NCBI GenBank assembly: GCA_021735655.1
Contig: JAIPGM010000009.1
Coordinates: 1 to 64,000 of the forward strand
From: Candidatus Omnitrophota bacterium
Lineage (GTDB): Bacteria; Omnitrophota; Gorgyraeia; Duberdicusellales; 4484-171
DNA: 64,000 nt
Direction of reading: 5' to 3'
A model generated the notes under the pieces. It was given only the letters and a program-made list of their open reading frames with translations. It did no database searches and was not told the origin of the DNA. Position 1 is the first letter of the stretch. Each line of letters begins with the position of its first letter. This document shows, piece by piece, positions 12,205 through 38,289 of the stretch. The translations under genes and the position numbers were made by a program.

Positions 12205-12215
12205 AAATTTACCTC

Positions 12216-18031: not shown

Positions 18032-18655
18032 CTACCTTGGAATCAATAAAGATTCATCAAGTTTTATAATTAATTCAGTACCTACAGGAAGCTTTATCTC
18101 TTTTCGACCTGACAATAAAGCAGCGCTTGCACTCGAAACAACACCAATAGCAAGCCCTTTTTCAGCACCATTCTTACCAAGAACTTCTTTTCCGACTAAA
18201 CTCCCCATAACTCCGCTAGCGCCAATTATGGCTAAATCTTGCGCGGCTTTACCGGGTATTTTAATAACTTTTACGCCTTCATCAGTATCAAGGCTGGCTA
18301 CAACAGGAATAATTACTCCGGAAAATAAGACTACCTGATCAAGCAATAAAAGCAAGCTTGCTTTATCGCCTAATTTTTCAAATTTTGTGGCGCTTTTGAC
18401 CAAGCCTCTGATTTGTACGCCTTTAGCCAATACAACCCTATCCTTATAATTAAGATCTTCTTTTAATTTAGTAATGAAGATATCGCCGCGTTTATTGCTA
18501 TTAGAACTGAGAGGTGCCCCTAAAACAACGGTGAGGTTAACTCCTTTCTGAATCTGATATCCTTCTTGGGTTTCTTGTACCTTTTCAACTAATGGCTCAC
18601 ATCCTAACAAAGATAAAACCAAAACTATAGACATTAATCTAGCTAAACTTTTCAT
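18032..18655 (-). CDS. Lipoprotein, hypothetical (Gly-zipper rich)
   Basis: It has a signal and lipobox LLGC. It overlaps the MFS start by 4 nt. Confidence 0.5.
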   Translation of the reverse strand: MKSLARLMSIVLVLSLLGCEPLVEKVQETQEGYQIQKGVNLTVVLGAPLSSNSNKRGDIFITKLKEDLNYKDRVVLAKGVQIRGLVKSATKFEKLGDKASLLLLLDQVVLFSGVIIPVVASLDTDEGVKVIKIPGKAAQDLAIIGASGVMGSLVGKEVLGKNGAEKGLAIGVVSSASAALLSGRKEIKLPVGTELIIKLDESLLIPR

Positions 18656-21996: not shown

Positions 21997-22686
21997 TCAG
22001 TTACGCCTTATTCCGACCATAATAAACAAATCACCCCTGTGATCACAGCAAGGACACATTCGGCCTAAACCTTTTAATCTTAGTTTTTGGCCATTCTTCG
22101 TACCTGGATTTATCTTTAAAGTAATCGCTCTACCATCAGTCATTTTAAACTTTACTTCACCACCGCGATTAGCGATATTTACCGGAACATTTAAATTAGC
22201 GAGGGTGTCGGTATCAACCTTCTGAAAAGAACCGGCATTATTAAAGTCATACGTTGTATATTTACCACCAGCATGACTGCCGGCTGAATGCACATCTTTA
22301 AAAATATCAGCTAAATCATCAAAAAAGAAATACTGACTGCTACTTCTTCCTGGCCTTGATTTCTTAGCGCCGATATCCTGGAAATGTTTCATTAAATCAT
22401 CAAAATCAAATCCAGTCTGAGAAGCAAAATCCCCGGAGCCAGGGCCGCTCCTGAACGTATAGGTCCCTTTTTTATAATCATCATATTCTTTGCGTTTTTT
22501 AAGGTCTCCGAGAACATAATAAGCGGCAGCGACATCCTTAAACTTTTCTTCGCATTCTTTCTTCTTCTCTTCCGGGCAACGGTCAGGATGATACTTAAAA
22601 GCAAGCTTTCGGTATGCCGATTTTATCTCTCCCTGGCTGGCCCGCCGATTAACTCCCAAAATTGTGTAGTAATCTTTGGTATTCAT
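21997..22686 (-). CDS. J-domain protein (DnaJ-like, no zinc finger), paralog of 2410..2733
   Basis: It has YYTILGV...[17 protein letters not shown]. Confidence 0.7.
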
Positions 22687-22696
22687 TAGCTATATT

Positions 22697-22897
22697 CTAA
22701 GTTTTCCGATTGGAAGATCTTCTTCCGATAAAGAAACCCAGGGAAAAACCGATGACTATGACTAGCGGCAACAAGATAATCCGTGACATGCTTAATTTCC
22801 AGAATAAAAATCTCAAAGTAACTACTTGCGTATTCTGCAGTAAAATAATTAATAATAAACACCCTAGCACTAATAGTATTATCCTCTTTAGTTTCAT
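22697..22897 (-). CDS. LapA-domain (DUF1049) small inner-membrane protein
   Basis: It has a two-TM pattern with LRFLFWKLSMSRIILLPLVIVIGF. Confidence 0.5.
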   Translation of the reverse strand: MKLKRIILLVLGCLLLIILLQNTQVVTLRFLFWKLSMSRIILLPLVIVIGFSLGFFIGRRSSNRKT

Positions 22898-22925
22898 TAT
22901 TGCTACCTCCTTAATAATGGCGATT

Positions 22926-24173
22926 TTATGTCTGTCTCAAAAATAGCTGAAATGACCTAGGTGGTAAATTAAATGAATAGTTATCAGTTACTATATTGAA
23001 CTTTTTCTTGTTATTGTCAATGTTTATGAATTTTCCCTGTATTGTCCTGGAATCAACCTCAACCTGGATTGATTCGGTACACTTATTAAATACCGCGATA
23101 CCGTCACCTTCCCGGCTAAATATAAGATGGCATTTTCCGGCTGAAACAATCTGCATAGTCTTCCCCGATAGAAGATTGTGAAATTTTATCATCTTTAGTA
23201 AATCCTTGCTCTTGTAAGCATCTTTCCACTGATCAGAATGCATTCCACCTTCTTTTCCTTTATCAGAATAAACTAACGGGACTCCGCCATCTCTGCCAAT
23301 AATATAAGCATAAGCAATCTTTTCATCTATTCTATTTGGATCGTTAGAATCAAAGATAAGTTGTCTCATCTCCTGATTATTAGGGATATCATGAGTTATG
23401 GCAAAAGTGAGACTTCGGAAACGGTCCAGCTGATCCGGTTCTTTTAAAGCTTCCAGACTACCCTCAATACTTAAGGCCTTACGCATTGAATAGAAAAGAT
23501 TAAAATCATAGACTGAAAAGTCAACTCTCTTTAAAAAATCTTTTAAGAAAATTCTATGTAACTCAGGAATTATCTCAGCAAAAATATATAAACCTCGGGT
23601 TATCTCCTCGGTAAAAACTTTTTTAATATGTTCTATCGACATATGCTTAGCCGCATCAATCCGAAACCCGTCAGCACCTATTTTTTTTAAAGCCCTAAGG
23701 TATTCTTTTTGGGCAGAAATCACCCTTTGACTGTCAGGATCTAAATCCGACAGGCCGGTATCAGTCTTGTGGCTAAAATCCTCAGCTGAAAAGATATCCT
23801 TTGATAAATCACCATATAGACGATTTCTAGCAAAAACTGGATCTTGCTGATACTGGTCTAGAATATCTTTACCAGGAAAATCCAAATTATCATCTCTACG
23901 ATGAGCCATGTGGTTAAAGACTACGTCGATATAGATTTTTAAATTATTTTTTTTTAAAGTTTGAATCAAAGAGGTTAATTCTTGCAGATTGCCCAAAGGC
24001 GAGAATATAACTCGGTAATCTAAAGGTTGATAGCGATAAAACCACTCTTTACCCTGACTAAAGGTAGGCGGCGAAATAAGTATGGCGGAATAACCAAAGC
24101 TGCTGATCTCTTTTGCTTGTTTCTCTATTTCCTTAAATTTCCAGTTAAAAGCATGTAAAATGACATTACCCAT
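22926..24173 (-). CDS. Alpha-amylase family (GH13) protein
   Basis: It has DVVFNHMA and GFRIDAAKHM catalytic-region motifs. Confidence 0.8.
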   Translation of the reverse strand: MGNVILHAFNWKFKEIEKQAKEISSFGYSAILISPPTFSQGKEWFYRYQPLDYRVIFSPLGNLQELTSLIQTLKKNNLKIYIDVVFNHMAHRRDDNLDFPGKDILDQYQQDPVFARNRLYGDLSKDIFSAEDFSHKTDTGLSDLDPDSQRVISAQKEYLRALKKIGADGFRIDAAKHMSIEHIKKVFTEEITRGLYIFAEIIPELHRIFLKDFLKRVDFSVYDFNLFYSMRKALSIEGSLEALKEPDQLDRFRSLTFAITHDIPNNQEMRQLIFDSNDPNRIDEKIAYAYIIGRDGGVPLVYSDKGKEGGMHSDQWKDAYKSKDLLKMIKFHNLLSGKTMQIVSAGKCHLIFSREGDGIAVFNKCTESIQVEVDSRTIQGKFINIDNNKKKFNIVTDNYSFNLPPRSFQLFLRQT

Positions 24174-24314
24174 TCAACCTCAATCAGAAATATAGCTAAC
24201 ATACCACTTATGATTCTTCTCTAATTTTCTTTTCTCAACCTCTCAATAAGCCTTTTAGTTGAAAAACGAACCTCTCTATTAGAGCATTATTTCCGTATTT
24301 ATCTATCGGTATTG

Positions 24315-24890
24315 CTATTTTCTTTTTAAAAACGAACTATTATGTTTTCGTAAAAATCTTCTATGCGGATTGCCTAGAGGGAACAGATTATTTTCAGTTA
24401 CAAACTGCATATCTTCTATGGTATAAAAAGCATTAGGATTGAATTTCTTTATTATTTGTATAACCCTTTTTAAATTCTTGCGTTTAACCACACTAAAAAT
24501 AACTTTAACCGGTCCATCTTTACCTTGAGCATTAATACTGGTGACGCCATAACCCTGCTTACTCATAAACTGCACTAAATCTACGGCATCTTTCTTAGTT
24601 ACTATTTGAATCATAAGATTACCCATTAGAATTCGTCTTTCTATAGAAATGCCCACAAAGTTTCCCATACCAAACCCAGCGGCATAAGCGATGTAATGGC
24701 TTACACTGCTTAGATTCTTCATTATCTGAGTAATAGCTATAAGCCAAATTAAAACTTCAAAAAAACCCAATACGGCTGACAAGAATCTTATCCCCCGGGA
24801 AACAAATATAATCCTGATAGTGCCGATAGTAACATCGATAATGCGGGCTAGAAAAATCAAAAACGGAATTAAGATATAATTTATTTCCAT
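24315..24890 (-). CDS. UPF0316/DUF2179-family membrane protein
   Basis: It has three N-terminal TM helices plus a C-terminal soluble domain. It is the last gene of the KamA-ATP-grasp operon. Confidence 0.5.
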   Translation of the reverse strand: MEINYILIPFLIFLARIIDVTIGTIRIIFVSRGIRFLSAVLGFFEVLIWLIAITQIMKNLSSVSHYIAYAAGFGMGNFVGISIERRILMGNLMIQIVTKKDAVDLVQFMSKQGYGVTSINAQGKDGPVKVIFSVVKRKNLKRVIQIIKKFNPNAFYTIEDMQFVTENNLFPLGNPHRRFLRKHNSSFLKRK

Positions 24891-24902
24891 AACTTTCTCG
24901 AT

Positions 24903-25979
24903 TTAGCGAAAAATCTTTAATATTTTATTACGCCAGTTATTATAAAAATAATGTGCTTTGGGCCCAGCCTGCTTTAGCAATTCCGGAGAACTACCTAGCC
25001 CCCTTATTTCAATCATTGCATCCTTAAGAAAAATTGAATATCTTTTGCTGATTTTTTTATTATTAATAAACCGCTGGGCAGCATCAACGATGTTATTAGC
25101 AGTAAACTGAGCGATCTGATCGGGTACACCACTAGGAGTTTCAGATTGAGAAGTCATATCGCATTGGTCGTTAACGTAATCTATGACTAAAAAACGCTTT
25201 TTTCCCTGTTTTTCATCAATAGCTATTTCACTTGAAAACCAAGCCATCCGGGTTATCGAAGCAATTTTAGAAACTATCTTGGCTAAGGGGAAAAGACTAT
25301 GCTTATTAAATTCTTCATAACCTATATGTTCATAACGATTAGCCTGATCATCCCACCAGCAAGGTATTATAGTATCAAATACATTAAACCCTCGAAACCA
25401 AGCACGTTTTCCTTCTATTTGGATAGGAACAATCTTCTCCTGTAGTAAAAAATTATCGCCTCGGTCAAACTTCCGAGCTTGAGCAATTTCTCGAATTGTG
25501 CCCCGAGCATCACGAATAACACCTAATTGACCATAGCCAAGCGCCGGCTTTATTACAAAAGGAACCCCTAGTTTCTTCTTCTCCTCATCGGGAAGCCTAA
25601 AAGTAGTCGGTTCCCAGTTACGAACAACAACTGTATAGGGAGCCATAATCCCGGCATTGATTAACTCATAGTGCATTGCTGATTTATCAATTGCACTCTG
25701 GGCCCGATCAGGATCATTAATAACCACCCCACCGCTATCTTTTACATCATAGCAAATACGAGTGTAGATATCGCCTTTTTTATTATAGGTAGCCTCGGTG
25801 TCCAGTAAAGCCTTGATTACAAGCTTTCTTTGATCAAGATCCCGAGCCACTTGCCTTACATTATCTTTAGATATCCAAAGGAAAGAAAGTTTTCTTTGCT
25901 TGCAAGCGGCCTGGAGTAAAACAACAAACCTCTCCTTGATATTACCACTCCAAGTCAAACCAAAATCGTATCTTTTCAT
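24903..25979 (-). CDS. ATP-grasp enzyme (RimK/LysX-like ligase?)
   Basis: It has VPFVIKPALGYGQLGV, matching the ATP-grasp KP..GS.G.GV pattern. There is a 9-nt gap to the LdcA-like gene. Confidence 0.5.
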   Translation of the reverse strand: MKRYDFGLTWSGNIKERFVVLLQAACKQRKLSFLWISKDNVRQVARDLDQRKLVIKALLDTEATYNKKGDIYTRICYDVKDSGGVVINDPDRAQSAIDKSAMHYELINAGIMAPYTVVVRNWEPTTFRLPDEEKKKLGVPFVIKPALGYGQLGVIRDARGTIREIAQARKFDRGDNFLLQEKIVPIQIEGKRAWFRGFNVFDTIIPCWWDDQANRYEHIGYEEFNKHSLFPLAKIVSKIASITRMAWFSSEIAIDEKQGKKRFLVIDYVNDQCDMTSQSETPSGVPDQIAQFTANNIVDAAQRFINNKKISKRYSIFLKDAMIEIRGLGSSPELLKQAGPKAHYFYNNWRNKILKIFR

Positions 25980-25988
25980 TATCTTATT

Positions 25989-26909
25989 TTAAACAACTGC
26001 ACTTTCGGCAACTGTTAATGACAGCCTATCAGCATCGATAGTTACCGGAAGTCCCAAAGGCAAGGTAACATGAAGCCCACCGCGCAAACGCAAATGCCCG
26101 GAAGGAAATCCATACAATACCGGGATATCCTGTCCTTTAAATAACTTTTCTATTAGTTTACGTAAATCATGGTCTTTACCTGAAGAGTCAAGCATTCTGC
26201 CTAAAAGTAACCCCTTGATATTTTTAAACTTCCCTGAACGCTTGAGACGAAAAAAATAATTTCTAATGGTATTAAAGTCTTCGTTGACGTCCTCTAAAAA
26301 CAAAATGCTGCCGGCAGTCCTTATTCGGTAAGACTTACCTATTGAATCAATGATTAAAGACATATTGCCGCCAACCAGCTTACCGGTAGCTACTCCCAGC
26401 TTAAAAGCAATCAGCTGGGGGAATTTCAATTCTCCCAAAGGCTTAGTTTCACTAAAAAGCCTTTGCAGATATTCAAGAGTCAGCTGATGCATTCCTTGAT
26501 AAATCTCCCCGGAAACTATCGGCCCGTGAAAAACAACCATCTTAGCCAATTTTTGCAAATAGAGTAAGATAATAGTTATATCACTGTACCCGAGAAAAAT
26601 TTTGGGATTTTTTCTAATAGTTTTCTCATCTAGGTAGGGTATAATTTCGGCTGAACCGTAACCGGCTTCAGCACAAAAAATAGCTCTCACTTCTTTGTCG
26701 GCAAACATCCGATTTATCTGCATGGCCCGCTGACGATCATGATCGGGCTTAGACCATTTCGGATCAAAAATTACTCGTTCATATTTAACTTTATAGCCTA
26801 GCTCTTTAAGCAGTTCAACGCCGCTTTTAAATTTATCCACATCAAAAGAACTTGCCGGAGCTACTATACCGATAGTATCACCAAGTTCTAATTTTTGAGG
26901 CTTACGCAT
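25989..26909 (-). CDS. LD-carboxypeptidase (peptidase S66; LdcA/MccF family)
   Basis: It has the GYSDIT nucleophile motif and a C-terminal GH...E triad region. There is a 2-nt gap to the upstream gene. Confidence 0.8.
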   Translation of the reverse strand: MRKPQKLELGDTIGIVAPASSFDVDKFKSGVELLKELGYKVKYERVIFDPKWSKPDHDRQRAMQINRMFADKEVRAIFCAEAGYGSAEIIPYLDEKTIRKNPKIFLGYSDITIILLYLQKLAKMVVFHGPIVSGEIYQGMHQLTLEYLQRLFSETKPLGELKFPQLIAFKLGVATGKLVGGNMSLIIDSIGKSYRIRTAGSILFLEDVNEDFNTIRNYFFRLKRSGKFKNIKGLLLGRMLDSSGKDHDLRKLIEKLFKGQDIPVLYGFPSGHLRLRGGLHVTLPLGLPVTIDADRLSLTVAESAVV

Positions 26910-26911
26910 TT

Positions 26912-29107
26912 TTACCTATCAAAGCTAAAACCATAACGATTAAATGAATCTTGCAAAATCAACCTTATTAAACTATTGTAACTGTTACCTTTCAATTTGT
27001 AAAGAATTGGTAAATCACCATACGAAGATGAGAGACCAGGCAAAGGGTTAATATCTATTATCTTAGGTTTGTTCTGAGTATCAAGGCGAAAATCTATACG
27101 CGCCATATCCTTTAATTCTAATTCTTTATATGCCTTTATAGCATAAAATTCAATTATTTTCTGAATATTTTTTAAAATACTCTCCTGTGGCTCATATTTA
27201 ACTTTATTTTGCCAATCCTGTTTGATCTCAAGAGAATAGAGAAAGTTCTTGCAAGCCTTATCCCTAGGCACTATTTTCATCATTCCTAGAATTTGTGGAA
27301 CTTCATTGCCGTAAACTCCTACGGTAATCTCATCTCTCTCCAAAAACTCTTCTATCAAGGCCGGCTGTTCATATTTCGAAATTATTTCCTCTACTCTCTT
27401 TTTTAAATCATCAAAGTTGCTGACTAAAGAATTAAGAAAAATTCCCTTTGAAGAACCTTCCCAACGCGGCTTTACAAGAAATGACCCGTTTCCTCCAAAA
27501 ATATTTCCTAAATTTTCTAAATCTTTGACATCCTTAATCATAGCCATCTCTGGAACCAGAATATTTGCTGATTTTAATAATCTATTGGTTAGGTATTTAT
27601 CTAGAGTGATTCCTAAGGCGACTGGATCTGATCCCGAATAGGGTATATCTAAGCTTTCAAGGATTGCCGGAACTTGCGATTCACGCCCCCTCTTATCCCC
27701 TCTGCCTTCGGCGATATTAAAAACGAAATCCGGCCTTTGACTCAACAATCGTTTTAGAAAATTATCATCCTGCTCAAAAATAACTACCTTGAAACCGTAT
27801 TTTTCTATTTCTTTCTTTATGCTTTCAATGGTCTCAATTTCGTCGTATTCCTCATGGTTCTCGCCAGCATCCTTATTTTTAAGATTAAATGTTATACCTA
27901 TTGTATTCACTGAGCGGACTTTTTTAGAATTAGTTATTGCTTCTGGCTGAACAGGAGTATCCTGATAAAAAAATATTTCATCTTTATAATTTTTTAATAT
28001 CATTCCTCGGTCAGAATCTGAAACCAAATAATCAGGACCAAAGGGGATTTTACCTTTCCCGCCTATAGCATCAATAACAAAAGTCGGTACACACATACCG
28101 CTAGTAAACCCCTGCATTTTTTTGATAATTTCTCTACCTTGCCAAGGTGATGTTCGAAAATGAGATGTCCCGCTAACCGGATCACACTGAAATAAATAAT
28201 ATGGCCTAACCCTTATCGCTTGTAGTCTCTGACATAAATCCCTCATCACTTGCAAGTTATCATTCACCCCCTTAAGCAATACTGACTGATTGCTTACAGG
28301 AATACCTATTTTTTGTAGTTTTCTGCAAGCTAAAGCTGCCTGAGGGGTAATTTCTCTAGGGTGGTTGAACTGGACATTAACCCAAACATTGTCATATTTT
28401 TTTAGCATCTCACAAAGCCGATCATCTATCCGCCGAGGGAAAACAACCGGAGTACGCGTACCGATACGGACAACCTCAATATTACTAAAAGAATGAATTT
28501 TTGAAAGTATAGCTTCTAGCCGTTCTGTAGGTAAAGTTAAAGGGTCTCCTCCGGAAACTATTATCTCCCTAATTTTCGGATTCCGGCCCACATAATTTAA
28601 GGCTCTATCTATATCTTCTAGGGTTGGTTCATTTATTTTTTTGCTCCATATTCTTTTTCTTGTGCAGTGGCGGCAATACATAAAGCAACGGTTAGTTACT
28701 AAAAGCAGTGCCCGATCAGGATAGCGGTGTACTAAGCAATCTAAGGGAGAACTCTTTTCCTCAGCTAAAGGATCCTTGCTTTCAAAGGAACCTTGGCTAA
28801 GCTCATCAAAATTAGGTATGCATTGTTTTCCAATCGGATCGCAGTTATCAGAGGTATTTTCAATTAAGGAAAAGTAGTAAAAAGGAATTTTCAAATGGTA
28901 AGCATCAGAAACTTTCTTTAATCGACAAATCTGTTCTTTATCTAAAGGTAGGTATCGAGAAAGGTCTTCAATGTTGTTAATAAACTCTTTAGGATCATAA
29001 TACTCTCTCCCAACATCAAGAGTTTTGTTGTGATAATTTACAGTTTCATAACTAGGTCCGCCAGGTTCCTCTTCAAGGAAAGTTTCAGCATCCAAGTTAT
29101 TGCTCAT
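26912..29107 (-). CDS. Fusion protein: KamA-family radical SAM aminomutase (lysine/glutamate 2,3-aminomutase-like) N-domain plus D-Ala-D-Ala-ligase-type ATP-grasp C-domain
   Basis: The N-domain has HRYPDRALLLVTNRCFMYCRHCTRKR (CX3CX2C) and SGGDPL. The C-terminal 330 aa have a Ddl-like pattern (DFVFNIAEGRGDKRGRESQVPAILESLDIPYSGS...ARIDFRLD...IDINPLPG). Upstream is RBS GAGGAGG. Confidence 0.8.
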   Translation of the reverse strand: MSNNLDAETFLEEEPGGPSYETVNYHNKTLDVGREYYDPKEFINNIEDLSRYLPLDKEQICRLKKVSDAYHLKIPFYYFSLIENTSDNCDPIGKQCIPNFDELSQGSFESKDPLAEEKSSPLDCLVHRYPDRALLLVTNRCFMYCRHCTRKRIWSKKINEPTLEDIDRALNYVGRNPKIREIIVSGGDPLTLPTERLEAILSKIHSFSNIEVVRIGTRTPVVFPRRIDDRLCEMLKKYDNVWVNVQFNHPREITPQAALACRKLQKIGIPVSNQSVLLKGVNDNLQVMRDLCQRLQAIRVRPYYLFQCDPVSGTSHFRTSPWQGREIIKKMQGFTSGMCVPTFVIDAIGGKGKIPFGPDYLVSDSDRGMILKNYKDEIFFYQDTPVQPEAITNSKKVRSVNTIGITFNLKNKDAGENHEEYDEIETIESIKKEIEKYGFKVVIFEQDDNFLKRLLSQRPDFVFNIAEGRGDKRGRESQVPAILESLDIPYSGSDPVALGITLDKYLTNRLLKSANILVPEMAMIKDVKDLENLGNIFGGNGSFLVKPRWEGSSKGIFLNSLVSNFDDLKKRVEEIISKYEQPALIEEFLERDEITVGVYGNEVPQILGMMKIVPRDKACKNFLYSLEIKQDWQNKVKYEPQESILKNIQKIIEFYAIKAYKELELKDMARIDFRLDTQNKPKIIDINPLPGLSSSYGDLPILYKLKGNSYNSLIRLILQDSFNRYGFSFDR

Positions 29108-29177
29108 TTTTCCTCCTCACTCAGGTAAAAGTCCACCCGGGAAAATTATAAATTACCCTATGATATCTCCATTCTCT

Positions 29178-29507
29178 CTAATAATCTTGGTCAGGATAAA
29201 CTTCTTCGCTGTCATCATCGTATCCTAACTCTTCATCATAAATATACTCATAGCTCAAAGCCCGCAAACCTTCCTGGCTATTTTCGGCTTTAATTTCCAC
29301 ATTATCTCCAAGCTCAAAATAAGCCTCTTCTACTAACTCTTTAGTAGTTAGCACTTTTTGACCACCAACAGTAATATAGCTACCGTCCTCGGAAATCTGC
29401 TCTATCTTACCCTTAAGCAACACTGAATCATCTTCCTGAGCAAAAGCAAAAGTTGTCCCAGCCAAAATCATAACCAACAACAATGTTAAATATTTTTTCA
29501 TGACCAT
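29178..29507 (-). CDS. Secreted small protein with an acidic C-terminal tail, hypothetical
   Basis: It has signal peptide ...TTFAFA|QE and an acidic tail DEELGYDDDSEEVYPDQDY. Confidence 0.5.
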   Translation of the reverse strand: MVMKKYLTLLLVMILAGTTFAFAQEDDSVLLKGKIEQISEDGSYITVGGQKVLTTKELVEEAYFELGDNVEIKAENSQEGLRALSYEYIYDEELGYDDDSEEVYPDQDY

Positions 29508-29725
29508 TCCTCCCTTTCTCCTTTTCCGTTAAAATCTTCTTCCTCCTCACTGTAATCCACGTAATCATCCCAGGTGCCGATTTCTTCCTCTAGCTCTACC
29601 GGATTAAGCTTGGTTAATTTAAGCTCTGCAAAACAACCCTGACAATTAAGGATATCGGCAATCCCCAAACCTTCTTCAATCTCAACATTTTCTTTACAAA
29701 CCGGACATTTGGTTTTTTTAACCAT
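29498..29725 (-). CDS. LysW-like zinc-ribbon small protein with an acidic C-terminal tail (candidate amino-group carrier protein)
   Basis: Two Cys pairs (CPVC...CQGC) are followed by AELKL..LNPVELEEE and an acidic tail ending EEWS. This parallels the Thermus LysW pattern CPECGAEL...CEDCGAELEV..LDPLRLE...EDWGE. Upstream is SD AAGGAGGT. Confidence 0.5.
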   Translation of the reverse strand: MVKKTKCPVCKENVEIEEGLGIADILNCQGCFAELKLTKLNPVELEEEIGTWDDYVDYSEEEEDFNGKGEREEWS

Positions 29726-29839
29726 TTATACCTCCTTTTAACCAAATACTCCTATATTCTTAATGGACCGCTCCACCGACATTAAGTTTATAGTTTCCAT
29801 ACTTTTTATTGAAGAGTGTAAACTGTTAGGTAAGACATT

Positions 29840-30178
29840 TTATCTTTTAGTTCGACGAGTTGCTTTTTTATCACTGGCGAAAGTTTTAGTAGCTCTAAAC
29901 TGAGAAACAATAAAATCGGTAATTCGACATTGAGGAGAATTAAGATCCTTATTGCGCCGGTAAAAAACCGAGTTGCCCTTTCTCCGGTCAAAAACTAGCT
30001 TAAGCAGGCGCAACCTCATTAGATGCTTGGAAATCGTAGGCTGGCTTACTTTTAAAACAACACATATATCTTTAACGGTAAGTTCTTTCTCATCCAGCAC
30101 ATTTATTATCCTTAGACGCGTATCATCGGAGCAGGCTTTAAATATCTGGCGTAATGATTTTAGATTTACTTTTCGCAT
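29840..30178 (-). CDS. ArsR/SmtB-family transcriptional regulator
   Basis: It has an HTH_20 pattern: SDDTRLRIINVL...LTVKDICVVLKVSQPTISKHL. I moved the start to the internal ATG (MRKVNLK) because the promoter lies inside the longer track ORF. Confidence 0.8.
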   Translation of the reverse strand: MRKVNLKSLRQIFKACSDDTRLRIINVLDEKELTVKDICVVLKVSQPTISKHLMRLRLLKLVFDRRKGNSVFYRRNKDLNSPQCRITDFIVSQFRATKTFASDKKATRRTKR

Positions 30179-30196
30179 ATAACATTCCTTTATTGG

Positions 30197-30235
30197 TATA
30201 TACGTATATATATCATCGGTTAAAAAGGTTGTCAA
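30197..30235 (-). promoter_or_regulatory. Sigma-70 promoter TTGACA-17-TATATA for arsR-family gene, with a 14-bp perfect palindrome TATATACGTATATA across the -10/+1 (probable auto-operator)
   Basis: The -35 is at 30230-30235. The palindrome is at 30197-30210. The spacer is 17 nt. Confidence 0.55.
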
Positions 30236-30378
30236 TATTTATTTTTTCTTTTTAAGAAAATAGGCCCTGGGCTTAGTTAATAAAGGGCACCGAAGGCGAC
30301 AAAATACAGGCAAGTGGAAAATTATATTTAGAATTGTTTAAAAGTATTCTAGCAGGAATAGTAAGGTTTACTTTTTTC

Positions 30379-31047
30379 TTAAACAACAAGTAAGTGTCCA
30401 TTTTCCTTAAGCCATCTTTGATATTTCTTATAATCAGGAATTATCGTTTTAACCTTGCTCCAAAATCTTCGGGAGTGATTTCTTACCTCAAGATGCGCCA
30501 ATTCATGCACTATAACATAATCGATAACTTGCAGTGGCGCAATTATTAAACGCCAAGCGAAGTTTAACCTCCCACTTGCACTGCAAGATCCGAATCTTTT
30601 ATAAGCATTTGATATTCTTAATGACTTGTATCTTAAACCCGTCACTTCTACAAAAAAATCTAAACGTTCTGATATTTTATTTAGCGCTTTGGCTCGATAC
30701 CACTCAATTAAACAGCTCCGAGCCTGAGGTAATAAACTTTTTGGAAACTCTAAATACTCAGTTAAGACTATATCCCTTCGATCCAAAGCTCTGAACCTGT
30801 AAGGACTGCCTAAATAAAAAAACTCTTCTCCATTAATAAATTGTTTAGTTTTAGTTTGAGCCTTACGCTTTTTTGCAATTTCCTGCTTCTTTTCAATCCA
30901 CTCCTTTTTCTGCGAAACGAAATCTTTAATTAACTTATCTGAAATACCAAAAGGAGCTCTCACGATCAATTGAGCATCTTGGGTTATGGCAAGAGACAAA
31001 GTCCGACGCCTTGACCTTATTATTTTATCCACCTTAACTTTTTCCAT
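30379..31047 (-). CDS. YgjP-like (DUF45) / M48-family zinc metallopeptidase
   Basis: It has the HELAHL...NHS...FW motif. Confidence 0.75.
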   Translation of the reverse strand: MEKVKVDKIIRSRRRTLSLAITQDAQLIVRAPFGISDKLIKDFVSQKKEWIEKKQEIAKKRKAQTKTKQFINGEEFFYLGSPYRFRALDRRDIVLTEYLEFPKSLLPQARSCLIEWYRAKALNKISERLDFFVEVTGLRYKSLRISNAYKRFGSCSASGRLNFAWRLIIAPLQVIDYVIVHELAHLEVRNHSRRFWSKVKTIIPDYKKYQRWLKENGHLLVV

Positions 31048-31060
31048 TTTATTTAATATT

Positions 31061-32236
31061 CTAACGTCGCGGAGGTCGATAACGCCTTCCTGGATGATGG
31101 CTGGAATGTATCGGTCTACCGGATTGCTTCAATGGATCTAATCCAAACCAATGAGGTGTAATTTTAGTAATACGTAACACTTCCCTCAAAGCAAGGATAT
31201 CGCGATCAGTTATCAAAGATAGGGCAAGACCTTTCCTGCCCATCCGACCAGTTCGGCCAGTACGATGCGTATATTGCTCACCACGAGGAAAATCCCAGTT
31301 AATAATATGAGAAACATGAGAAAAATCGAGACCGCGGCCAGCGACATCAGTTGCAATTAAGTAGCGAATCTTTTGAGCCCGAAAACGTCGTACTATCGAA
31401 GAACGCTTGCCTTGCTCGAGGCCAGCGTGAATATATTCGGCATCGCGAAGATGCTTGCGTAAAACCTTGTGCAACTTATCCACCATATGGCGAGCATTAC
31501 AAAAAATGATCGTCTGATTAACTCTTTCACGCTGCAAGTAGTCAAGGAGTGCTTTTTCTTTTGCTTCACGATTAACATAAATAAAATAGTGCCCAATACT
31601 TTCTGGTATAGCCTGTTCATTAATCAGTGATATCTGGGCCGGGTTTTTGAGACAATCATTGGCAAGTTTTTTCGTCTTATCATTCATCGTGGCCGAAAAC
31701 ATAAGTGTCTGATGCTCATGTCTAATACAAGAAAGGATAAACTCAATTCCCTCTAGGAATCCATCATCAAGCAATTGATCAGCCTCATCTAAGATCACGC
31801 ATTTAACATCGGCCAGATTAACTACCCCATCGTACATTAAGTCAGTAAGCCGGCCAGGAGTAGCTACCAAAATATGCACCCCATGCTTAATTTTAGCTAC
31901 TTGTATTGACTTATCAAAACCGCCGTAAGCGGCAAGAATTGCAACCGGAGTTTTAAGTGCAATTTTATGTATCTCATCAACATACTGGATACAAAGCTCA
32001 CGCGTAGGCACAATAACCAACCCCTGAATAGTTTTACTGCTCGAGTCGACTTTCTGAATAAGCGGAATTGCACAAGCGCTGGTCTTGCCAGATCCGGTCT
32101 CAGCCAAAGCACAGATATCGCGCCCAGTCAAAATAATAGGATAAGTTGCTTCCTGTATCGGGGTAAGCTCGTTAAACCCTATCCTCTGTAACGAGTTCAT
32201 AATCGCTTTTGGTAAATTAAGTTCGCTAAATTTCAT
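31061..32236 (-). CDS. DEAD-box ATP-dependent RNA helicase with an Arg-rich C-terminal tail
   Basis: It has the Q-motif region, TGSGKT, DEAD (VILDEADQLLD), SAT and HRTGRTGR. Confidence 0.9.
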   Translation of the reverse strand: MKFSELNLPKAIMNSLQRIGFNELTPIQEATYPIILTGRDICALAETGSGKTSACAIPLIQKVDSSSKTIQGLVIVPTRELCIQYVDEIHKIALKTPVAILAAYGGFDKSIQVAKIKHGVHILVATPGRLTDLMYDGVVNLADVKCVILDEADQLLDDGFLEGIEFILSCIRHEHQTLMFSATMNDKTKKLANDCLKNPAQISLINEQAIPESIGHYFIYVNREAKEKALLDYLQRERVNQTIIFCNARHMVDKLHKVLRKHLRDAEYIHAGLEQGKRSSIVRRFRAQKIRYLIATDVAGRGLDFSHVSHIINWDFPRGEQYTHRTGRTGRMGRKGLALSLITDRDILALREVLRITKITPHWFGLDPLKQSGRPIHSSHHPGRRYRPPRR

Positions 32237-32266
32237 AAGTTTAACCGAGTGTTTTAATATGGCTCT

Positions 32267-32461
32267 TTATTTTATCTCCCTAAATTCAGCATCAACCACA
32301 TTTTTATTTTTAGGTGGCTGTTTTTTTGATTTTTGATAACCTCTTGGCTGAGACTTAGGCTTAACCTGGCTAGCAAAAAGACTGATAAAAAAAATAATAA
32401 TTCTAAAAAGAAAACTAACGATCAAGTAAAAAAATAATATTTTTAATAAAAAACTAAACAT
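32267..32461 (-). CDS. Small protein, 64 aa, with an N-terminal TM helix and a Lys/Pro-rich basic tail, hypothetical
   Basis: It has a hydrophobic N-terminus. No clear SD is present, so it is tentative. Confidence 0.35.
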   Translation of the reverse strand: MFSFLLKILFFYLIVSFLFRIIIFFISLFASQVKPKSQPRGYQKSKKQPPKNKNVVDAEFREIK

Positions 32462-32515
32462 AATAATTCAGCTAAACCCAAAATCTAATTTCGTTTTTGC
32501 TTTGAGTAAGTTTCA

Positions 32516-33958
32516 TTAAACATTTTTTATAAATAAACGCTTTAAAGTATCGGCAAGACGACTTTTCTCTACTTCTCTAGCGATAACACTATACAATATC
32601 CTTGGCGTTACAAAAAGAAGTGCCAATAATTCCTTAAAACTGAAAAACTTTATTACAAAAATCCCCTTCCATAACATTTTTAAATATCGCGATGGTGTAT
32701 AAAAAGAAAACTTTATTCTCCGTCCAATCTTTTTTAAAGCCGCATGGCTATAGGTATCGGAATAAAGCTCGCCTCGGTCAGTAACATGGTAGCCGGGAGT
32801 ATTTAAGGCTAGCTCCTTGAGCGGCGAGAATTTCTCAATTCTCAACTTCTGGGAAGAAAAAGAATCAACCCCGATCTCCTTTGCAAACTGGGCTATATAT
32901 AACATCTCTTCCTCGCTTTCACCAATATTACCATAAATAAAATAACCATGATAGTAAAGTGGGTATTTTCTAAACACCGAAAAGGCTTCTCTCACTGCCT
33001 TGGAGTCAAAACCCTTATCAATTTGCGCAAGTATCCAATCATGAGGCGATTCAATGCCAATAAGCAGCGTTTTAAACCCGGCTTTGACCATTTTGTCTAA
33101 TAGTTTAGGATGCTGGGCTACTTCAATCCGAGCCTGGGCTACGAACCGTTTCTTTATTTTGCGAGAAATTATCAAATCACAGATCTTTTCGGCTCTTTTT
33201 ACGTCAACGAAAAAATTTTCATCACTGAAAATTATCGCATTCGCGGTCATCTTCTCAATCTCATCAACAACAAGCTCAACTTGCCGAACTGCATAGCTCC
33301 GCTTCTGACCGAGAGGATTTAAGCTAAAAGTACAAAATTTACAATTATAGGGACAACCTCGAGAACTCAACACAGTATCAAAGCTTACATTGGTTACATT
33401 AATGCCATTAAGCATCAGGCGACACTCGCTACGTCTTAGGCTTCGGTCCGGCGGGAAAATACTATTAATATCCGGTAATGGCCGATTACTATTATGTATT
33501 ATTTTTCCATCTGCCCGATAAGAAATACCCAGAATATCCTCGAACCGAGCTCCGGGGGCGATTTCTTTTATGGTTTCTTCGCCTTCACCTCTAACAATGA
33601 TGTCTATTCTCGGACAATTATTAAAAAACTCTTCAACCTTTTCGCTGGCTTGATAGCCACCTACGACCAACGGCCTACCCGTAGGTATTAAATTCAACAA
33701 ATCGAAGATTTCCTTGAGTTGACGATCCCAGCTAACCCCAACACAGACAAGATCTATTTCTTTAGCTATAAAATCCAAAAGATTGTCAATGACCGATAGC
33801 TCTTTCTCATATCTTAAATCAAGGAGAGTTATTTTGCCTACTGAATCCTTAGCATTAGTGGCCACATATTCCAAGCCAGTTGGCGGAAAAAGCATCATTG
33901 AGCTTATCGCCGAGCTCCTAACATAGGGGTTCAAAAATAAAGCATGTTTATATTTCAT
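32516..33958 (-). CDS. B12-binding-domain radical SAM protein
   Basis: It has an N-terminal B12-binding-like region and the radical SAM motif CPYNCKFC. Confidence 0.8.
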   Translation of the reverse strand: MKYKHALFLNPYVRSSAISSMMLFPPTGLEYVATNAKDSVGKITLLDLRYEKELSVIDNLLDFIAKEIDLVCVGVSWDRQLKEIFDLLNLIPTGRPLVVGGYQASEKVEEFFNNCPRIDIIVRGEGEETIKEIAPGARFEDILGISYRADGKIIHNSNRPLPDINSIFPPDRSLRRSECRLMLNGINVTNVSFDTVLSSRGCPYNCKFCTFSLNPLGQKRSYAVRQVELVVDEIEKMTANAIIFSDENFFVDVKRAEKICDLIISRKIKKRFVAQARIEVAQHPKLLDKMVKAGFKTLLIGIESPHDWILAQIDKGFDSKAVREAFSVFRKYPLYYHGYFIYGNIGESEEEMLYIAQFAKEIGVDSFSSQKLRIEKFSPLKELALNTPGYHVTDRGELYSDTYSHAALKKIGRRIKFSFYTPSRYLKMLWKGIFVIKFFSFKELLALLFVTPRILYSVIAREVEKSRLADTLKRLFIKNV

Positions 33959-33987
33959 AAAGATACATTGTATAAGATTAAATAAAC

Positions 33988-35001
33988 TTAAGCAAGGCTA
34001 ATTGGAGACTTTGCAATAGCCGAAAAATCCTTAATCAGCTTGAACATCTCCAGCCGACTTTTAGCCTGATGAGTACTAGTTCTTAAAGTCTTTGTTTTTA
34101 AAAAACCTCTGGTGTACCAGATATAAAATTTACGAAATTCAACTGTACCGATTCGTTCACCATAAAAACCAATTGATAAATCTAAATGCTTTTTCATCAT
34201 TTTCGCTACTTCTTTTATGGTTGGCCGAGCTACAACCTTACCTTTAGTTAAGAACTCTTCAATCTCTTTAAATATCCAAGGATTACCCAAGGCCCCGCGG
34301 GCTACAATAATTGCGTCGCAATTAGTTTGATCAAACATCTCTTTTGCTTTACTTGCCGAAAAAATATCACCGCTAGCAATAACCGGGATCGATAAAGCTT
34401 TTTTTACCTTTTCTATACTCAAATAATCAATCGAATCACGATAGCCTTGCTCCCGAGTTCTCCCATGTAAGCATACCCCGGCAATACCAGCATCCTGAGC
34501 ATATTTTGCTATATTAACAATATTCTTAGCACTGTCCCAACCCAGACGTAACTTAACCGTAACCGGAAGATTAGCTTCCTTAACCATATTCGATAGCAAC
34601 TTTTGGAGCTTTTTCGGGCTTTTTAGTAAAGCCGCACCTTTACCATTGCTGGTTATTTTTCTCCGCGGGCAAGCGGCATTAAGATCTAAAATACCGTAAG
34701 GAAAATCCCTTAACTTCTCTAAGGCCTTTAGTATGTCGTAAGAATCATCTCCTAATAACTGTACCCCCAGAGGCTGGTCACTCTTTTCAGTAGAAAGCAT
34801 CTCAAGAGTTCTTCGGCTTGAATAACTCAAAGAACGAGCGCTAATCATCTCCAAGAAAGCAAATTTGCATCCGGCTTCTCGATTCAGCTTGCGAAAAGGC
34901 AAAGAGCTTACCCCCGATAAGGGAGCAAGCATTATCCGCGGAAGCATAAAGCTTTTGCTAGAACTACCTATTTTTAAACTATTTTTTAATTTTTCTAACA
35001 C
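33988..35001 (-). CDS. dusB: tRNA-dihydrouridine synthase
   Basis: It has the Dus pattern: LDLNAACP, a conserved Cys, and a TIM-barrel FMN site. Confidence 0.85.
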
Positions 35002-35257
35002 CGATCAATTCTTCCTTCTTAGCCCTGCTTAATTTTTTTATCTTTAGCTCCTTCAAAAAAGCTATTTTAAAATATTTATACTCCTTAAACCAAACTAACT
35101 TAACTGGCCTTCTGTCTCTGGTATACTTGGCCCCCTTACCCTGATTATGTAACCTAAGACGTCTTTCTAAGTCCGGAGTATATCCCGTATAGTAAGTCTG
35201 ATCAGAACATTCGACAATATAAACAAAATGCCTACCACTTCTTTTGATTTTCGCCAT
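34979..35257 (-). CDS. GIY-YIG nuclease-domain protein (UPF0213/YhbQ-like)
   Basis: It has the [28 protein letters not shown] motif. Confidence 0.8.
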
Positions 35258-35312
35258 CAGATATTAGATAGTTTACAGCCTTCGGTGGGCAGTAACTGAA
35301 AGGTCAAAGAAA

Positions 35313-37604
35313 TCAATCCACATCTTTATCCATACCTTTATCAAGCAAAGAACTAAAATGCCGTCTTAATTTACCTAAGGCTCTCGGAATCACCGCAAGA
35401 TACGGCAAAACCCGCTTGAGCCCAGCTGATGTATTCTTTGAACTGACTCGCTTTAATACTGGGATCTCGGCTATAGCCGGTAAAACAAAAATTGCCGCCA
35501 AGGCCGCCACTATCGTTCCTAAAACTATTGAGAGGCCAAAACGCTGAGTAGGCGGAAATGATGATATACCAAATATGCCAAAACCAGCGGAAATTATAAA
35601 TACTGAACCGACTATCGGCTCCCAAAGCCTAACTTGAGCCTCCTTCCACGCTATCCGGCTCTTAACGCCTTTTCGCATCCGACGACGAACAAAAATTGCC
35701 ATGTGAATCATCGAATCAATACCCATAGCAATAGCTACATTAGCTGCCGGGGCTGATATTATGTCTAAAGGAACTTTCATTAGACCAACGACTCCAAGCA
35801 TGCAAACCGGAGGAATACATAAACTTAAAACCATCGCCAAAGATATTCCAAAACAACGCGAAACTATCCAGGCGATGATTATAAAAAATAATATTAATTT
35901 CACCAACCCATAGACAAGACTTGAAGCGACTAATTTTGAAAGCTCGCCCTGTAACACATATACCCCGCCCTGCATTTCAGGAATAAATCCGTGTTCGTGA
36001 ATTATTTTCTTAATTCTTTCAATAACCATGATTCTTGACGCTTTACGATCAGCCTCTTTCATCCTGATAAAAAAATAACCGGAAATCCGATCGTCAGTAA
36101 CAAAACTCCTGGCAATCCTATGGTATTTTTCCTGACCCATAGTTTTCAGTAAACTTTCCCAATTAAGCAAAAAAGCTAACGGCGCCCGGCTGCCTTCGGC
36201 CATAATTACCGGAAGTGAAACAATGCTACCAACCGAACGATCTTCCTCTAGCGCCTCCTGAAGTCTCCAAAGTCTCTTATAAACTATATTATCAGTAAGC
36301 TTGCCGCCACCAGCATCCCGTAGAACAAGCTTAAACGGACTACTGCCACCATTACGATCAATATACTCCAAACCTTGGCGTAGCTCGGTTTTACCCTTAA
36401 AATAAGACAACAAACTCGGATCGGTATTCAAACTGCTTAAGCCTAGCAATCCGACAATAAACAAAAAAAGTATTCCAATAATAACCCAGTTTGAATGTCC
36501 TAGCAAATAAGAACTAACTTTTCTATTATTAGTTTCTTCAGCCTTAATCTTCACCGGCCGCATTGATTTAAGAAATAAAGGATAAACCCCGTAGACAACG
36601 GCAATTGCGGCCAAGGTTCCGATTGATCCGGTAACCCCCAATTCACGCAACGGTTTTGCCTGGACAAACAAAAGACTTAAAAATCCCAAAAGGGTAGTTA
36701 CCATACACCAAAACGAAGCAGTAAAAGTACTTTTTACCGCTTTAGCAGTAAACTCTGGAGGACTAAGCTCTAAATTCTGGCCGGCATAACGCCAGCTATA
36801 GGTAAGAAACACAATATGTGAGAGGGCTAAAACAAAAATTATCGTTACTAAGTTAACCGTTAAAATTCCTATTCTTATTCCAAACAGATTAGAGATAATT
36901 AAAGTAAGCACACAGGCATTAATACAGGATAGTAAAGTTCCAAGAAGTATCTTCGGTGAACGGAATATCAACATAATCACTATCCCAAAAATCAAAAAGG
37001 CCATAGCGCTAAAAAACCTAAAATCTCTTAATAGGTTACGCCGGATATTTTCAACCACATAGGGAACTCCGGCAATCTTTAGCTGAAAATAATCAGTAGC
37101 GAATAGATCCATCGCCTCCTCAAATTTCGGTACAATCTCTTGCGGCGAGACATCTTCTAAAAGAACAATTAAATTTGAAGATTTACCATCTTCAGAAACT
37201 AAAAGACGCTTCCAAAGCGGGCTCACTAAGGCATCATCAAGGTTTTTTGGGCCGCGAGTTAAGCCCTTTACACTAGACACACCGCTAACCGCTGAAAGAA
37301 CCTCAGTAAATAAGTCCAGTCGCTCAATATACTCTGAAGAATAAACATCGCCAGTTACGCTAATAATAACCTGCTCCTGGTCGGGAAAAACTTTAGAAAT
37401 CATCTTGTCATACTGAAACTTTGGCTCATCGCTTGAAAAAAAGAAGTCACCATCTACATGAGGGGTAAGATCAACGGTAAGAAATAGAATAAGCAGGGCT
37501 ACTATAGTTAAACCGAAAAACAACAAAAGCTGCCAAGAATACTTGGCAATTAATCGATTTATTAACTTTGACTTTTTAATCTTAGAAAATAAAAACTTTA
37601 CCAT
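35313..37604 (-). CDS. MMPL/RND-superfamily exporter
   Basis: It has two bundles of about 6 TM helices separated by large periplasmic loops, an MMPL-like arrangement. Confidence 0.7.
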   Translation of the reverse strand: MVKFLFSKIKKSKLINRLIAKYSWQLLLFFGLTIVALLILFLTVDLTPHVDGDFFFSSDEPKFQYDKMISKVFPDQEQVIISVTGDVYSSEYIERLDLFTEVLSAVSGVSSVKGLTRGPKNLDDALVSPLWKRLLVSEDGKSSNLIVLLEDVSPQEIVPKFEEAMDLFATDYFQLKIAGVPYVVENIRRNLLRDFRFFSAMAFLIFGIVIMLIFRSPKILLGTLLSCINACVLTLIISNLFGIRIGILTVNLVTIIFVLALSHIVFLTYSWRYAGQNLELSPPEFTAKAVKSTFTASFWCMVTTLLGFLSLLFVQAKPLRELGVTGSIGTLAAIAVVYGVYPLFLKSMRPVKIKAEETNNRKVSSYLLGHSNWVIIGILFLFIVGLLGLSSLNTDPSLLSYFKGKTELRQGLEYIDRNGGSSPFKLVLRDAGGGKLTDNIVYKRLWRLQEALEEDRSVGSIVSLPVIMAEGSRAPLAFLLNWESLLKTMGQEKYHRIARSFVTDDRISGYFFIRMKEADRKASRIMVIERIKKIIHEHGFIPEMQGGVYVLQGELSKLVASSLVYGLVKLILFFIIIAWIVSRCFGISLAMVLSLCIPPVCMLGVVGLMKVPLDIISAPAANVAIAMGIDSMIHMAIFVRRRMRKGVKSRIAWKEAQVRLWEPIVGSVFIISAGFGIFGISSFPPTQRFGLSIVLGTIVAALAAIFVLPAIAEIPVLKRVSSKNTSAGLKRVLPYLAVIPRALGKLRRHFSSLLDKGMDKDVD

Positions 37605-37614
37605 GATTGCTGGT

Positions 37615-38289
37615 TCACTTCCAGATACTTTCTCCTTTTAATACTTCCGGTATAGCAAAAGTATCGATCCTTAGACCACCATCATGCTCAATCTTTATCG
37701 TATAGACTATGCCCGGAACAAACATCGTCCCAGGAGCTTCCACTTGAGCGTTCTTTATGCCCATGCTTTCACCCTTCTTAGGATTAAGCGCATATTCCCA
37801 AAACTTTTTCCACAATTTTCGCTCAAAAGCACTTCCGGTTTCATCTACCTTATAGCCTTGAGGCACCTTATCAATATGAGTTATTTCGTATTCTTGTGTA
37901 TTGCTACCGTCAAGCATAAATACCTTCCAAAATAAAAAGGCACTTTTACCCTTTAAGGCATCACCAGCTTTAACATGAATATCATCAAATCTTATAACTA
38001 AAGATTGGAACTGAATAATATTTCCCGAAAAGGTAAAATACTTAGGTTCAAGGGGATTTCCGTCAACATCGTATTCGAGAAATTTTATTGTAGTGTAAAG
38101 CTTATTTTCATTTTCGTTATAATTTACTCCGGTAACCAAAACCTCGGCTATCCTCGAATCAGCCTCAAGACGAGCAATAACTTTCCTCAAAACTTTATTC
38201 TGGTTAATATAGCGCTGGATATAATGGTATGAAATGAGGGTTACCGTGAGAATTAAAGCAACAACAAAAAAGGTCTTAATTTTATTCAT
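37615..38289 (-). CDS. Membrane-anchored periplasmic protein, hypothetical (possible accessory to the MMPL exporter)
   Basis: It has an N-terminal TM helix. There is a 10-nt gap to the MMPL gene. Confidence 0.5.
   Translation of the reverse strand: MNKIKTFFVVALILTVTLISYHYIQRYINQNKVLRKVIARLEADSRIAEVLVTGVNYNENENKLYTTIKFLEYDVDGNPLEPKYFTFSGNIIQFQSLVIRFDDIHVKAGDALKGKSAFLFWKVFMLDGSNTQEYEITHIDKVPQGYKVDETGSAFERKLWKKFWEYALNPKKGESMGIKNAQVEAPGTMFVPGIVYTIKIEHDGGLRIDTFAIPEVLKGESIWK

Follow-up and report, generated by a model that had tools for sequence, protein, structure and literature searches.

The stretch of DNA considered here, called the window throughout (64,000 nucleotides of contig JAIPGM010000009.1, assembly GCA_021735655.1, from a Candidatus Omnitrophota bacterium), carries a gene for a protein of 75 amino acids (aa) that combines a LysW-like zinc ribbon with a long acidic tail. 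It is the second of six genes that follow one another on the same strand, transcribed in the order ArsR-family regulator, LysW-like protein, DUF5666/ExtJ-like protein with a signal peptide, fusion of a KamA domain with a Ddl-like ligase domain (KamA::Ddl), S66 peptidase, and a 358-aa protein (Table 1). The composition of this locus and its recurrence in related genomes tentatively suggest that the LysW-like protein may be an acidic carrier or substrate of an ATP-grasp ligase.

The open reading frame (ORF) has exactly the coordinates given in the earlier note on this DNA; it is on the minus strand and translates to MVKKTKCPVCKENVEIEEGLGIADILNCQGCFAELKLTKLNPVELEEEIGTWDDYVDYSEEEEDFNGKGEREEWS. It is a real gene, with a strong Shine-Dalgarno site and conserved homologues, and an identical 75-aa protein is on deposit from a metagenome-assembled genome of Candidatus Omnitrophica. 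Its stop codon overlaps the ATG of the DUF5666-like gene (ATGA; the overlap is 20 nt in the related locus L013), and the two genes are, judging by this arrangement, translationally coupled. The acidic C-terminal tail that the earlier note had pointed out on this next product is present and rich in D, E and Y; the same product bears a signal peptide, for which reason it is predicted to be exported.

Table 1. Genes and sites around the LysW-like gene, in transcription order (window coordinates)
Feature	Position	Strand	Basis and remarks
ArsR/SmtB-family helix-turn-helix regulator	29840..30178	-	directly upstream, like orientation; likely start is an internal ATG, 112 aa
Shine-Dalgarno site belonging to the LysW-like gene, AAGGAGGT	29730..29737	-	read from the sequence; ATG 4 nt downstream
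LysW-like zinc-ribbon protein, 75 aa	29498..29725	-	ORF call and sequence, PF21344, profile matches to LysW chains in the PDB, hhalign, AlphaFold2
DUF5666/ExtJ-like small protein with signal peptide, 107 aa from the second ATG	29178..29501	-	beta-rich, D/E/Y-rich C-terminal tail
KamA::Ddl fusion, 731 aa	26912..29107	-	Pfam, NCBIfam, 2A5H alignment, fusion homologues
S66 (LD-carboxypeptidase/MccF family) serine peptidase	25989..26909	-	PF02016, PF17676
Divergent ATP-grasp ligase, 358 aa, no Pfam family	24903..25979	-	AlphaFold2/Foldseek: ArgX/LysX/RimK/Ddl-like

Residues 1-40 of the LysW-like protein form the zinc ribbon, with two CxxC pairs, and residues 41-75 an acidic tail that is predicted to be disordered and holds 15 D/E and 2 K/R. 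The AlphaFold2 model is of low confidence (overall predicted local distance difference test, pLDDT, 54.8; below 50 in the tail), and within it residues 1-40 fold into four short strands compatible with a zinc ribbon. The sequence patterns on which the earlier note had relied are essentially as it gave them, with small corrections: CPVC and CQGC are 17 residues apart instead of 19, FAELKL and NPVELEEE are separated by three residues and not four, and the D/E/Y/W-rich tail past NPVELEEE measures 27 aa, not 25, with 11 D/E, 5 Y/W/F and 2 K/R. That tail is indeed longer than the tail of canonical LysW. The protein is best explained as cytoplasmic.

Profile comparisons bear out the proposed kinship with LysW. 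The model of the LysW globular domain, PF21344, is matched at 28.6 bits (E 1.1e-6; gathering cut-off 27); a profile of 63 family members matches the solved LysW chains of Thermococcus (5K2M_E, 1e-11), Thermus (3WWL_A, 6.7e-11) and Sulfolobus (3VPB_E, 1e-3); and an hhalign comparison with LysWs of the DWGE type reaches a probability of 98.7% (E 4e-16) over residues 2-51, the alignment ending ahead of the terminal motif. By these scores the globular domain is genuinely homologous to LysW. The comparison that the earlier note had recommended, with profile models of the LysW/ArgW family, nevertheless gave a divided answer, since homology is significant but the equivalog models fail, for TIGR01206 (lysW), whose cut-off is 53.2 bits, gives 20.6, and NF041070 (carrier_LysW_Arch), whose cut-off is 75, gives 19.5. 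Among the ORFs of window positions 22000-38000 there is no LysZ (amino-acid kinase), LysY (reductase), LysJ (aminotransferase) or LysK (M20 hydrolase), and genes of the LysZ/Y/J/K type are likewise absent from the related loci L001, L005 and L011. Because the equivalog models fail, the terminal motif is absent and LysZ/Y/J/K are lacking nearby, we regard the 75-aa protein as LysW-like, not as LysW or ArgW. This evidence contradicts the label "lysine biosynthesis protein LysW" that automatic annotation at NCBI and JGI has given to some family members.

An exhaustive hidden Markov model search of 1.84 billion representative proteins recovered 132 relatives; canonical LysWs ending in DWGE are confined to the weakest matches. 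The subfamily is distinct from LysW/ArgW, and every named member comes from Omnitrophota. The tails of 93 single-domain homologues have a median length of 20 aa and consist of 25% D and 22% E (47% together), so that acidity exceeds chance and is kept across the family. The final residue follows no fixed pattern (Y19, E14, N8, F7, S6, D6, W6). In the KamA-linked proteins of loci L011-L106 the C-terminus is often acidic and then aromatic (..EEF, ..DEY, ..QQY, ..DKW). An aromatic end is rarer where the cluster includes an S66 peptidase or the 358-aa ligase (1/7 against about 16/22), a trend that so few independent lineages do not allow us to call significant and that we treat as a lead only. A more distant set of LysW-like proteins (including P0126, P0134 and P0136) contains one group of about 130 aa with two tandem LysW-like zinc ribbons. 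Other distant cases (L014, 20-966; L016, 2788-3407) include an acidic-tail protein that is followed by a SET-domain protein, and one with a nearly pure D/E tail in a locus, perhaps phage-derived, of mostly small genes without Pfam matches.

LysW binds its substrate through the gamma-carboxyl of a C-terminal Glu (E53/E54) within an EDWGE-type motif (PMC12998189). The earlier note had read the terminal EEWS of the window protein as a parallel of EDWGE, and this reading fails. The codons of the last nine residues, GKGEREEWS, lie in the stretch where ribosomes bind for the next gene (..AAAGGGAGGAATGGTCATGA..). A 74%-identical homologue (L001) has a TGA directly after ..EEEEDFN and lacks all nine, the remaining 27 nt past that stop codon being the GGAGG ribosome-binding region of its next gene. 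A single G/T difference between window positions 29498-29524 (minus strand) and L001 (10198-10230), GGA in the former and TGA in the latter, decides whether the nine codons are translated. The window protein thus ends ..GEREEWS where close homologues end ..DFN, ..YFDD or ..QQY, and several relatives also finish in ..(E/K)WS owing to the same overlap with the Shine-Dalgarno site of the next gene. EEWS as an analogue of EDWGE is therefore ruled out as read-through of a ribosome-binding site. Of the two features by which the earlier note had proposed to judge the assignment, significant similarity to LysW is present, but conservation of a terminal Glu or acidic motif is not.

Since the LysW-like protein has no stretch conserved enough to serve as an anchor, its genomic linkage was followed through two neighbours. 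With the Ddl-like domain (Ddl1) as anchor, 185,579 species genomes yielded 80 loci, 43 of the Omnitrophota type and 37 from Synergistota, and a second set comprised ten metagenome loci anchored on the secreted DUF5666-like protein. LysW-like genes were counted in the 34 Omnitrophota-type species loci with adequate flanking sequence. Of these 34, 17 have a LysW-like gene no more than 9 kb away from the KamA/Ddl cluster, and 12 have it directly upstream of KamA. Elsewhere it follows a GNAT gene (L039, L042), follows S66 and the ATP-grasp gene (L041) or lies 7 kb off (L043), and in L038 an ArsR-LysW-LysW-DUF5666 unit stands by itself, 5 kb from the enzymes. The linked loci are scattered over many clusters of Ddl1 sequences. 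By our estimate a single-copy gene would fall by chance into a neighbourhood of about 18 kb in a genome of 1-2 Mb in only about 1-2% of cases. Because the association is found in 50% of the loci and in varied gene orders, the linkage to KamA/Ddl is real, though facultative. The whole module of ArsR regulator, LysW-like protein, secreted protein and KamA::Ddl recurs in close and distant relatives (L001, L005, L011/L012), and in L011/L012 nothing further accompanies it. An ArsR-family gene stands upstream of the LysW-like gene in L001, L005, L011 and several of the loci L017-L106.

The tightest partner of the LysW-like gene is the secreted DUF5666-like protein, whose gene lies directly downstream in 12 of the 17 Omnitrophota loci that contain a LysW-like gene. 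Among the metagenome loci a LysW-like gene is upstream of it in six of ten, and KamA then follows in five of those six.

The enzymes beside the LysW-like gene form a cluster of their own, with a conserved core of KamA, two Ddl-like ATP-grasp ligases (Ddl1 and Ddl2) and a GNAT (loci L017-L096, L006 and L007). Besides the 43 Omnitrophota-type and 37 Synergistota genomes, this core occurs in Magnetoovum, Methanocellales, other archaea and Nitrospirota, and fusions of KamA with Ddl1 are present in 9 of the 43 Omnitrophota loci as well as in Magnetoovum and Methanocellales. The window cluster itself has no GNAT among its ORFs by Pfam; the GNATs of related clusters match only RimI, and weakly. In the 731-aa window fusion the KamA domain, which is of the radical-SAM/pyridoxal-phosphate (PLP), lysine-2,3-aminomutase type, occupies residues ~40-405 and the Ddl-like ATP-grasp domain residues ~425-725. 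The former aligns to the Clostridium lysine-2,3-aminomutase 2A5H at 1e-105, with equivalents of FQCD, FVIDAI and GGKGK conserved and those of Asp293, Asp330 and Lys337 kept; the epsilon-ammonium of lysine binds at the two aspartates, and Lys337 is the PLP lysine. It scores 425.6 against the AblA equivalog, below the cut-off of 525.4, and 236 bits against the EpmB model. Most likely, as these residues suggest, the KamA domain makes beta-lysine from free lysine, and the KamA-Ddl1-Ddl2-GNAT cluster as a whole probably makes a small molecule that contains beta-lysine.

Genes of the osmoadaptation type lie near some of these clusters: in the window an alpha-amylase-family enzyme (22926-24173), in L005 the trehalose synthase TreT with DUF5752 (12028-13883) and in L001 an MscS channel (18515-19552). 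Such neighbours would fit an osmolyte role of the beta-lysine cluster. In topical searches of 8 million full-text papers we found no description of the KamA-Ddl-Ddl-GNAT cluster, widespread as it is in Omnitrophota, Synergistota, Nitrospirota and archaea, nor of a system combining KamA, ATP-grasp and a LysW-like protein.

The earlier note had also noticed two ATP-grasp enzymes at the locus, and both are there, one as the Ddl-like domain of the 731-aa fusion and the other, by its AlphaFold2 fold, as the 358-aa protein. The latter model is confident (pLDDT 87.6), and its best Foldseek match is the ArgX:LysW complex 3VPB (1.6e-11), followed by Ddl (4.9e-11), RimK and LysX structures scoring almost equal to 3VPB (within a factor of a few). 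At the sequence level the NCBIfam LysX model is a weak match for it (E 6e-5), with 22 bits where the cut-off is 275. The RimK and TTL Pfam models match the cluster ligases only below their thresholds; RimK structures are among the fold matches of the 358-aa protein. Over 1000 homologues make up this ligase family, most of them in Omnitrophota. In Omnitrophota and Margulisiibacteriota an S66 peptidase and a divergent ATP-grasp ligase of 340-360 aa recur as a conserved gene pair that does not depend on KamA (window 24903-26909, minus strand; L009, 6033-8026; L010, 4305-6268; L041, 3457-5476), and the ligase alone also has homologues in Elusimicrobia. Only in L041 do genes for S66, the ATP-grasp ligase and a LysW-like protein follow one another in this order. 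In L008 the ligase gene adjoins a LysM/Amidase_2 gene, which hints at a part in cell-wall peptide metabolism. Because this large family normally pairs with S66 or adjoins a LysM amidase, with no LysW-like gene in the vicinity, the 358-aa protein is probably not a dedicated partner of the LysW-like protein, and a part as its dedicated loader is not supported.

Two further patterns among the linked loci are leads only, drawn from few independent lineages. GNAT is absent from 9 of the 12 loci in which the LysW-like gene is directly upstream of KamA, and present in 20 of the 22 without a LysW-like gene there. The GNAT-lacking, LysW-linked clusters that we inspected carry a hydrolase instead, either S66 (window, L001, L023) or PIG-L (L024, the only member of its clade that we looked at). 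We likened this to arginine and lysine biosynthesis, where acetyl and LysW are alternative means of protecting the amino group (PMC12998189). As a rule of mutual exclusion between GNAT and LysW-like protein, however, we do not rely on the pattern, for clustering of Ddl1 reduces it to two or three lineages. The mean net charge of Ddl1 is +7.8 in linked and +2.4 in unlinked loci (p=0.04, kinship ignored), which is too marginal without phylogenetic correction to serve as a docking signature. In L024 a gene for a 435-aa PIG-L/LmbE-family amidase with a signal peptide and a PHPDDE motif (9800-11107) stands between the two Ddl-like ligase genes; its clade is LysW-linked and without GNAT, and sister loci have a similar gap between the ligase genes.

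We speculate that the LysW-like protein acts as an acidic carrier or substrate for an ATP-grasp ligase, in the manner of LysW. To this we assign a probability of about 35%, which makes it the single most likely reading. It is favored because of the homology to LysW, the acidic tail, the adjacent ATP-grasp ligases and the repeated linkage. ATP-grasp ligases are the class of enzymes that load LysW, and to our knowledge covalent carrying of amino groups is the only function characterized for the LysW domain family. We have also counted in its favor that the best structural match of the 358-aa neighbor is the ArgX:LysW complex. In such a scheme the acidic tail would thread into the positively charged substrate cleft of an adjacent ligase, either the Ddl-like domain fused to the aminomutase or possibly the 358-aa ArgX/RimK-like enzyme, and a tail carboxylate would be joined, at the expense of ATP, to the amino group of lysine or of beta-lysine that the KamA domain might supply on the spot. 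A hydrolase, S66 in the window and PIG-L in the L024 sister clade, may then free the adduct or trim it. Attachment at a terminal Glu, as in LysW, is impossible here.

Several observations weigh against this proposal. No residue of the tail is conserved, as length, sequence and terminal residue all vary; the last nine residues of the window protein are dispensable; and a variable tail of this kind fits non-specific electrostatics better than site-specific chemistry. The enzymes manage without the protein: no LysW-like ORF was found in any of 32 Synergistota loci, and KamA, Ddl1, Ddl2 and GNAT occur without one in half of the Omnitrophota loci, in Magnetoovum and in Methanocellales, so that the LysW-like protein is an accessory of the cluster. 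KamA probably acts on free and not on tethered lysine, since both aspartates that bind the epsilon-ammonium of free lysine are kept. Relatives of the 358-aa ATP-grasp ligase stand mostly beside S66, away from any LysW-like gene, and the match of this ligase to ArgX hardly surpasses that to Ddl. In L015 the LysW-like gene and its secreted partner stand alone, with no KamA within 7 kb, and the export of that closest partner is unexplained by a cytosolic carrier. The GNAT anticorrelation and the Ddl1 charge trend, which would both favor the proposal, come from few independent lineages.

A bolder version of the carrier proposal, doubtful in our judgment, is a new type of covalent scaffold, in which the fused ATP-grasp domain would attach lysine or beta-lysine to a tail carboxylate, while S66 or PIG-L together with the ArgX-like ligase would trim or rebuild the C-terminus. 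If it were true, it would amount to beta-lysylation of a protein or to protein-templated synthesis of beta-lysyl peptides at an attachment site unlike that of LysW, perhaps with a tubulin-like cycle that removes and adds a terminal aromatic residue. It would also extend the principle behind amino-group carrier proteins (AmCPs) to beta-amino-acid chemistry in an uncultivated phylum.

The best-surviving alternative to an acidic carrier, possible though we would not expect it to prove right, is a non-covalent acidic adaptor or regulator, in which zinc ribbon and poly-acidic tail make up a docking or polyanion-mimic module. Such a module might bind a basic surface of KamA/Ddl, act on ArsR as an anti-repressor by DNA mimicry, or sequester a cationic beta-lysyl product. 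Uniform acidity despite varied length and sequence is what an adaptor would show, and the many tails that run from acidic to aromatic recall the acidic docking tails at the C-termini of SSB and T7 gp2.5. The frequent position of an ArsR gene directly upstream speaks for the regulatory variant, but ArsR is absent from many loci that contain a LysW-like gene (L019, L021, L024, L027, L035 and L055). The occurrence of the enzyme cluster elsewhere without the protein, and a Ddl1 that is somewhat more basic where the protein is present, are also in line with an accessory adaptor. On the other hand, the sole characterized relatives are covalent carriers, and the coupling to an exported protein is left as unexplained as it is by an acidic carrier.

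That coupling is instead the starting point of an unlikely third reading, according to which the LysW-like gene and the secreted DUF5666-like gene form an independent two-gene cassette with a function of its own (perhaps in envelope or stress physiology), merely co-located or co-regulated with the beta-lysine cluster. The overlap of the two genes, the D/E/Y-rich tails on both products, the isolated pair in L015 and the ArsR-headed unit of L038, set 5 kb apart from the enzymes, would all be expected from a cassette, and the osmotic or envelope-stress neighbors hint in the same direction (TreT in L005, MscS in L001). Among genome loci the DUF5666-like gene never occurs without a LysW-like gene, but it does so in the metagenome loci L101 and L102, and the LysW-like gene conversely stands next to the enzymes without the secreted partner in L033, L037, L039, L041, L042 and L043. 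Mere co-location is also hard to reconcile with a LysW-like gene near the enzymes in 50% of the loci, and in more than one gene order, against the 1-2% estimated for chance. Finally, a bona fide LysW/ArgW carrier of alpha-aminoadipate lysine or arginine biosynthesis, to which automatic annotation and domain homology might point, is effectively refuted by the equivalog scores, a C-terminus with neither terminal Glu nor EDWGE, a KamA/Ddl gene context, and the lack of recognized LysX/Z/Y/J/K-type genes in the annotated 16-kb stretch and in L001, L005 and L011.

Each of the known systems resembles this locus in part. AblA/AblB makes N-epsilon-acetyl-beta-lysine, and Ngg, a GNAT with an ATP-grasp enzyme, makes the dipeptide osmolyte NAGGN; a cluster of KamA, ATP-grasp and GNAT with osmoadaptation genes near some loci resembles such a small-molecule pathway based on beta-lysine, perhaps for an osmolyte. 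The window KamA, however, falls below the AblA cut-off, the window cluster has no GNAT, and neither system uses a LysW-like protein. EpmB, which is KamA-like, and EpmA carry out the beta-lysylation of EF-P, where beta-lysine from an aminomutase of the KamA family goes to a partner ligase and is joined by it to a protein, as we propose for the LysW-like locus. There the ligase is a LysRS paralog and the target a Lys side chain of EF-P, whereas in the window the ligase is of the ATP-grasp type and the candidate target offers carboxylates.

In the pairs of RimK with ribosomal protein S6 and of TTL with tubulin, which ends EEY, the acidic tail at a protein's C-terminus is the target of an ATP-grasp ligase. 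The LysW-like locus shares with them an exposed acidic tail, an S66 carboxypeptidase and ATP-grasp enzymes in one cluster and many ends of the acidic plus Y/F/W kind, but its ligases are Ddl-like or very divergent and probably not of the RimK/TTL family, and a modification of its tail would be hypothetical. S66 enzymes, moreover, are known to act on LD-peptides and MccF-type substrates and are not known to act on protein tails. In the AmCP pathways of secondary metabolism in Streptomyces and Serratia, which lead to DADH, vazabitide and ficellomycin (PMC11726168), a LysW-type carrier has likewise been recruited beyond the primary synthesis of lysine and arginine. Those pathways retain enzymes like LysX/Z/Y/J and a LysW-type C-terminus, neither of which was identified at the LysW-like locus.

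LysW/ArgW itself, as known from Thermus, Sulfolobus and Thermococcus (3WWL, 3VPB, 5K2M), has a homologous zinc ribbon with two CxxC pairs, an acidic flexible C-terminal extension and ATP-grasp ligases nearby. The tails of the LysW-like proteins differ in being two to three times longer and variable, with no EDWGE or terminal Glu, the equivalog cut-offs are not reached, and the genes around them encode a lysine-2,3-aminomutase, Ddl-like ligases and a small secreted protein instead of LysZ/Y/J/K partners. LysW-type carriers have so far been known for one chemical logic, the protection of an alpha-amino group on a terminal Glu in the synthesis of lysine, arginine and DADH. The subfamily described here has kept the fold and the acidic tail, has lost the attachment motif and now stands beside a fusion of radical-SAM lysine aminomutase and ATP-grasp ligase, which speaks for one of two things, that biosynthesis tethered to a protein has found a new use or that the LysW fold has taken on a new role as a docking module.

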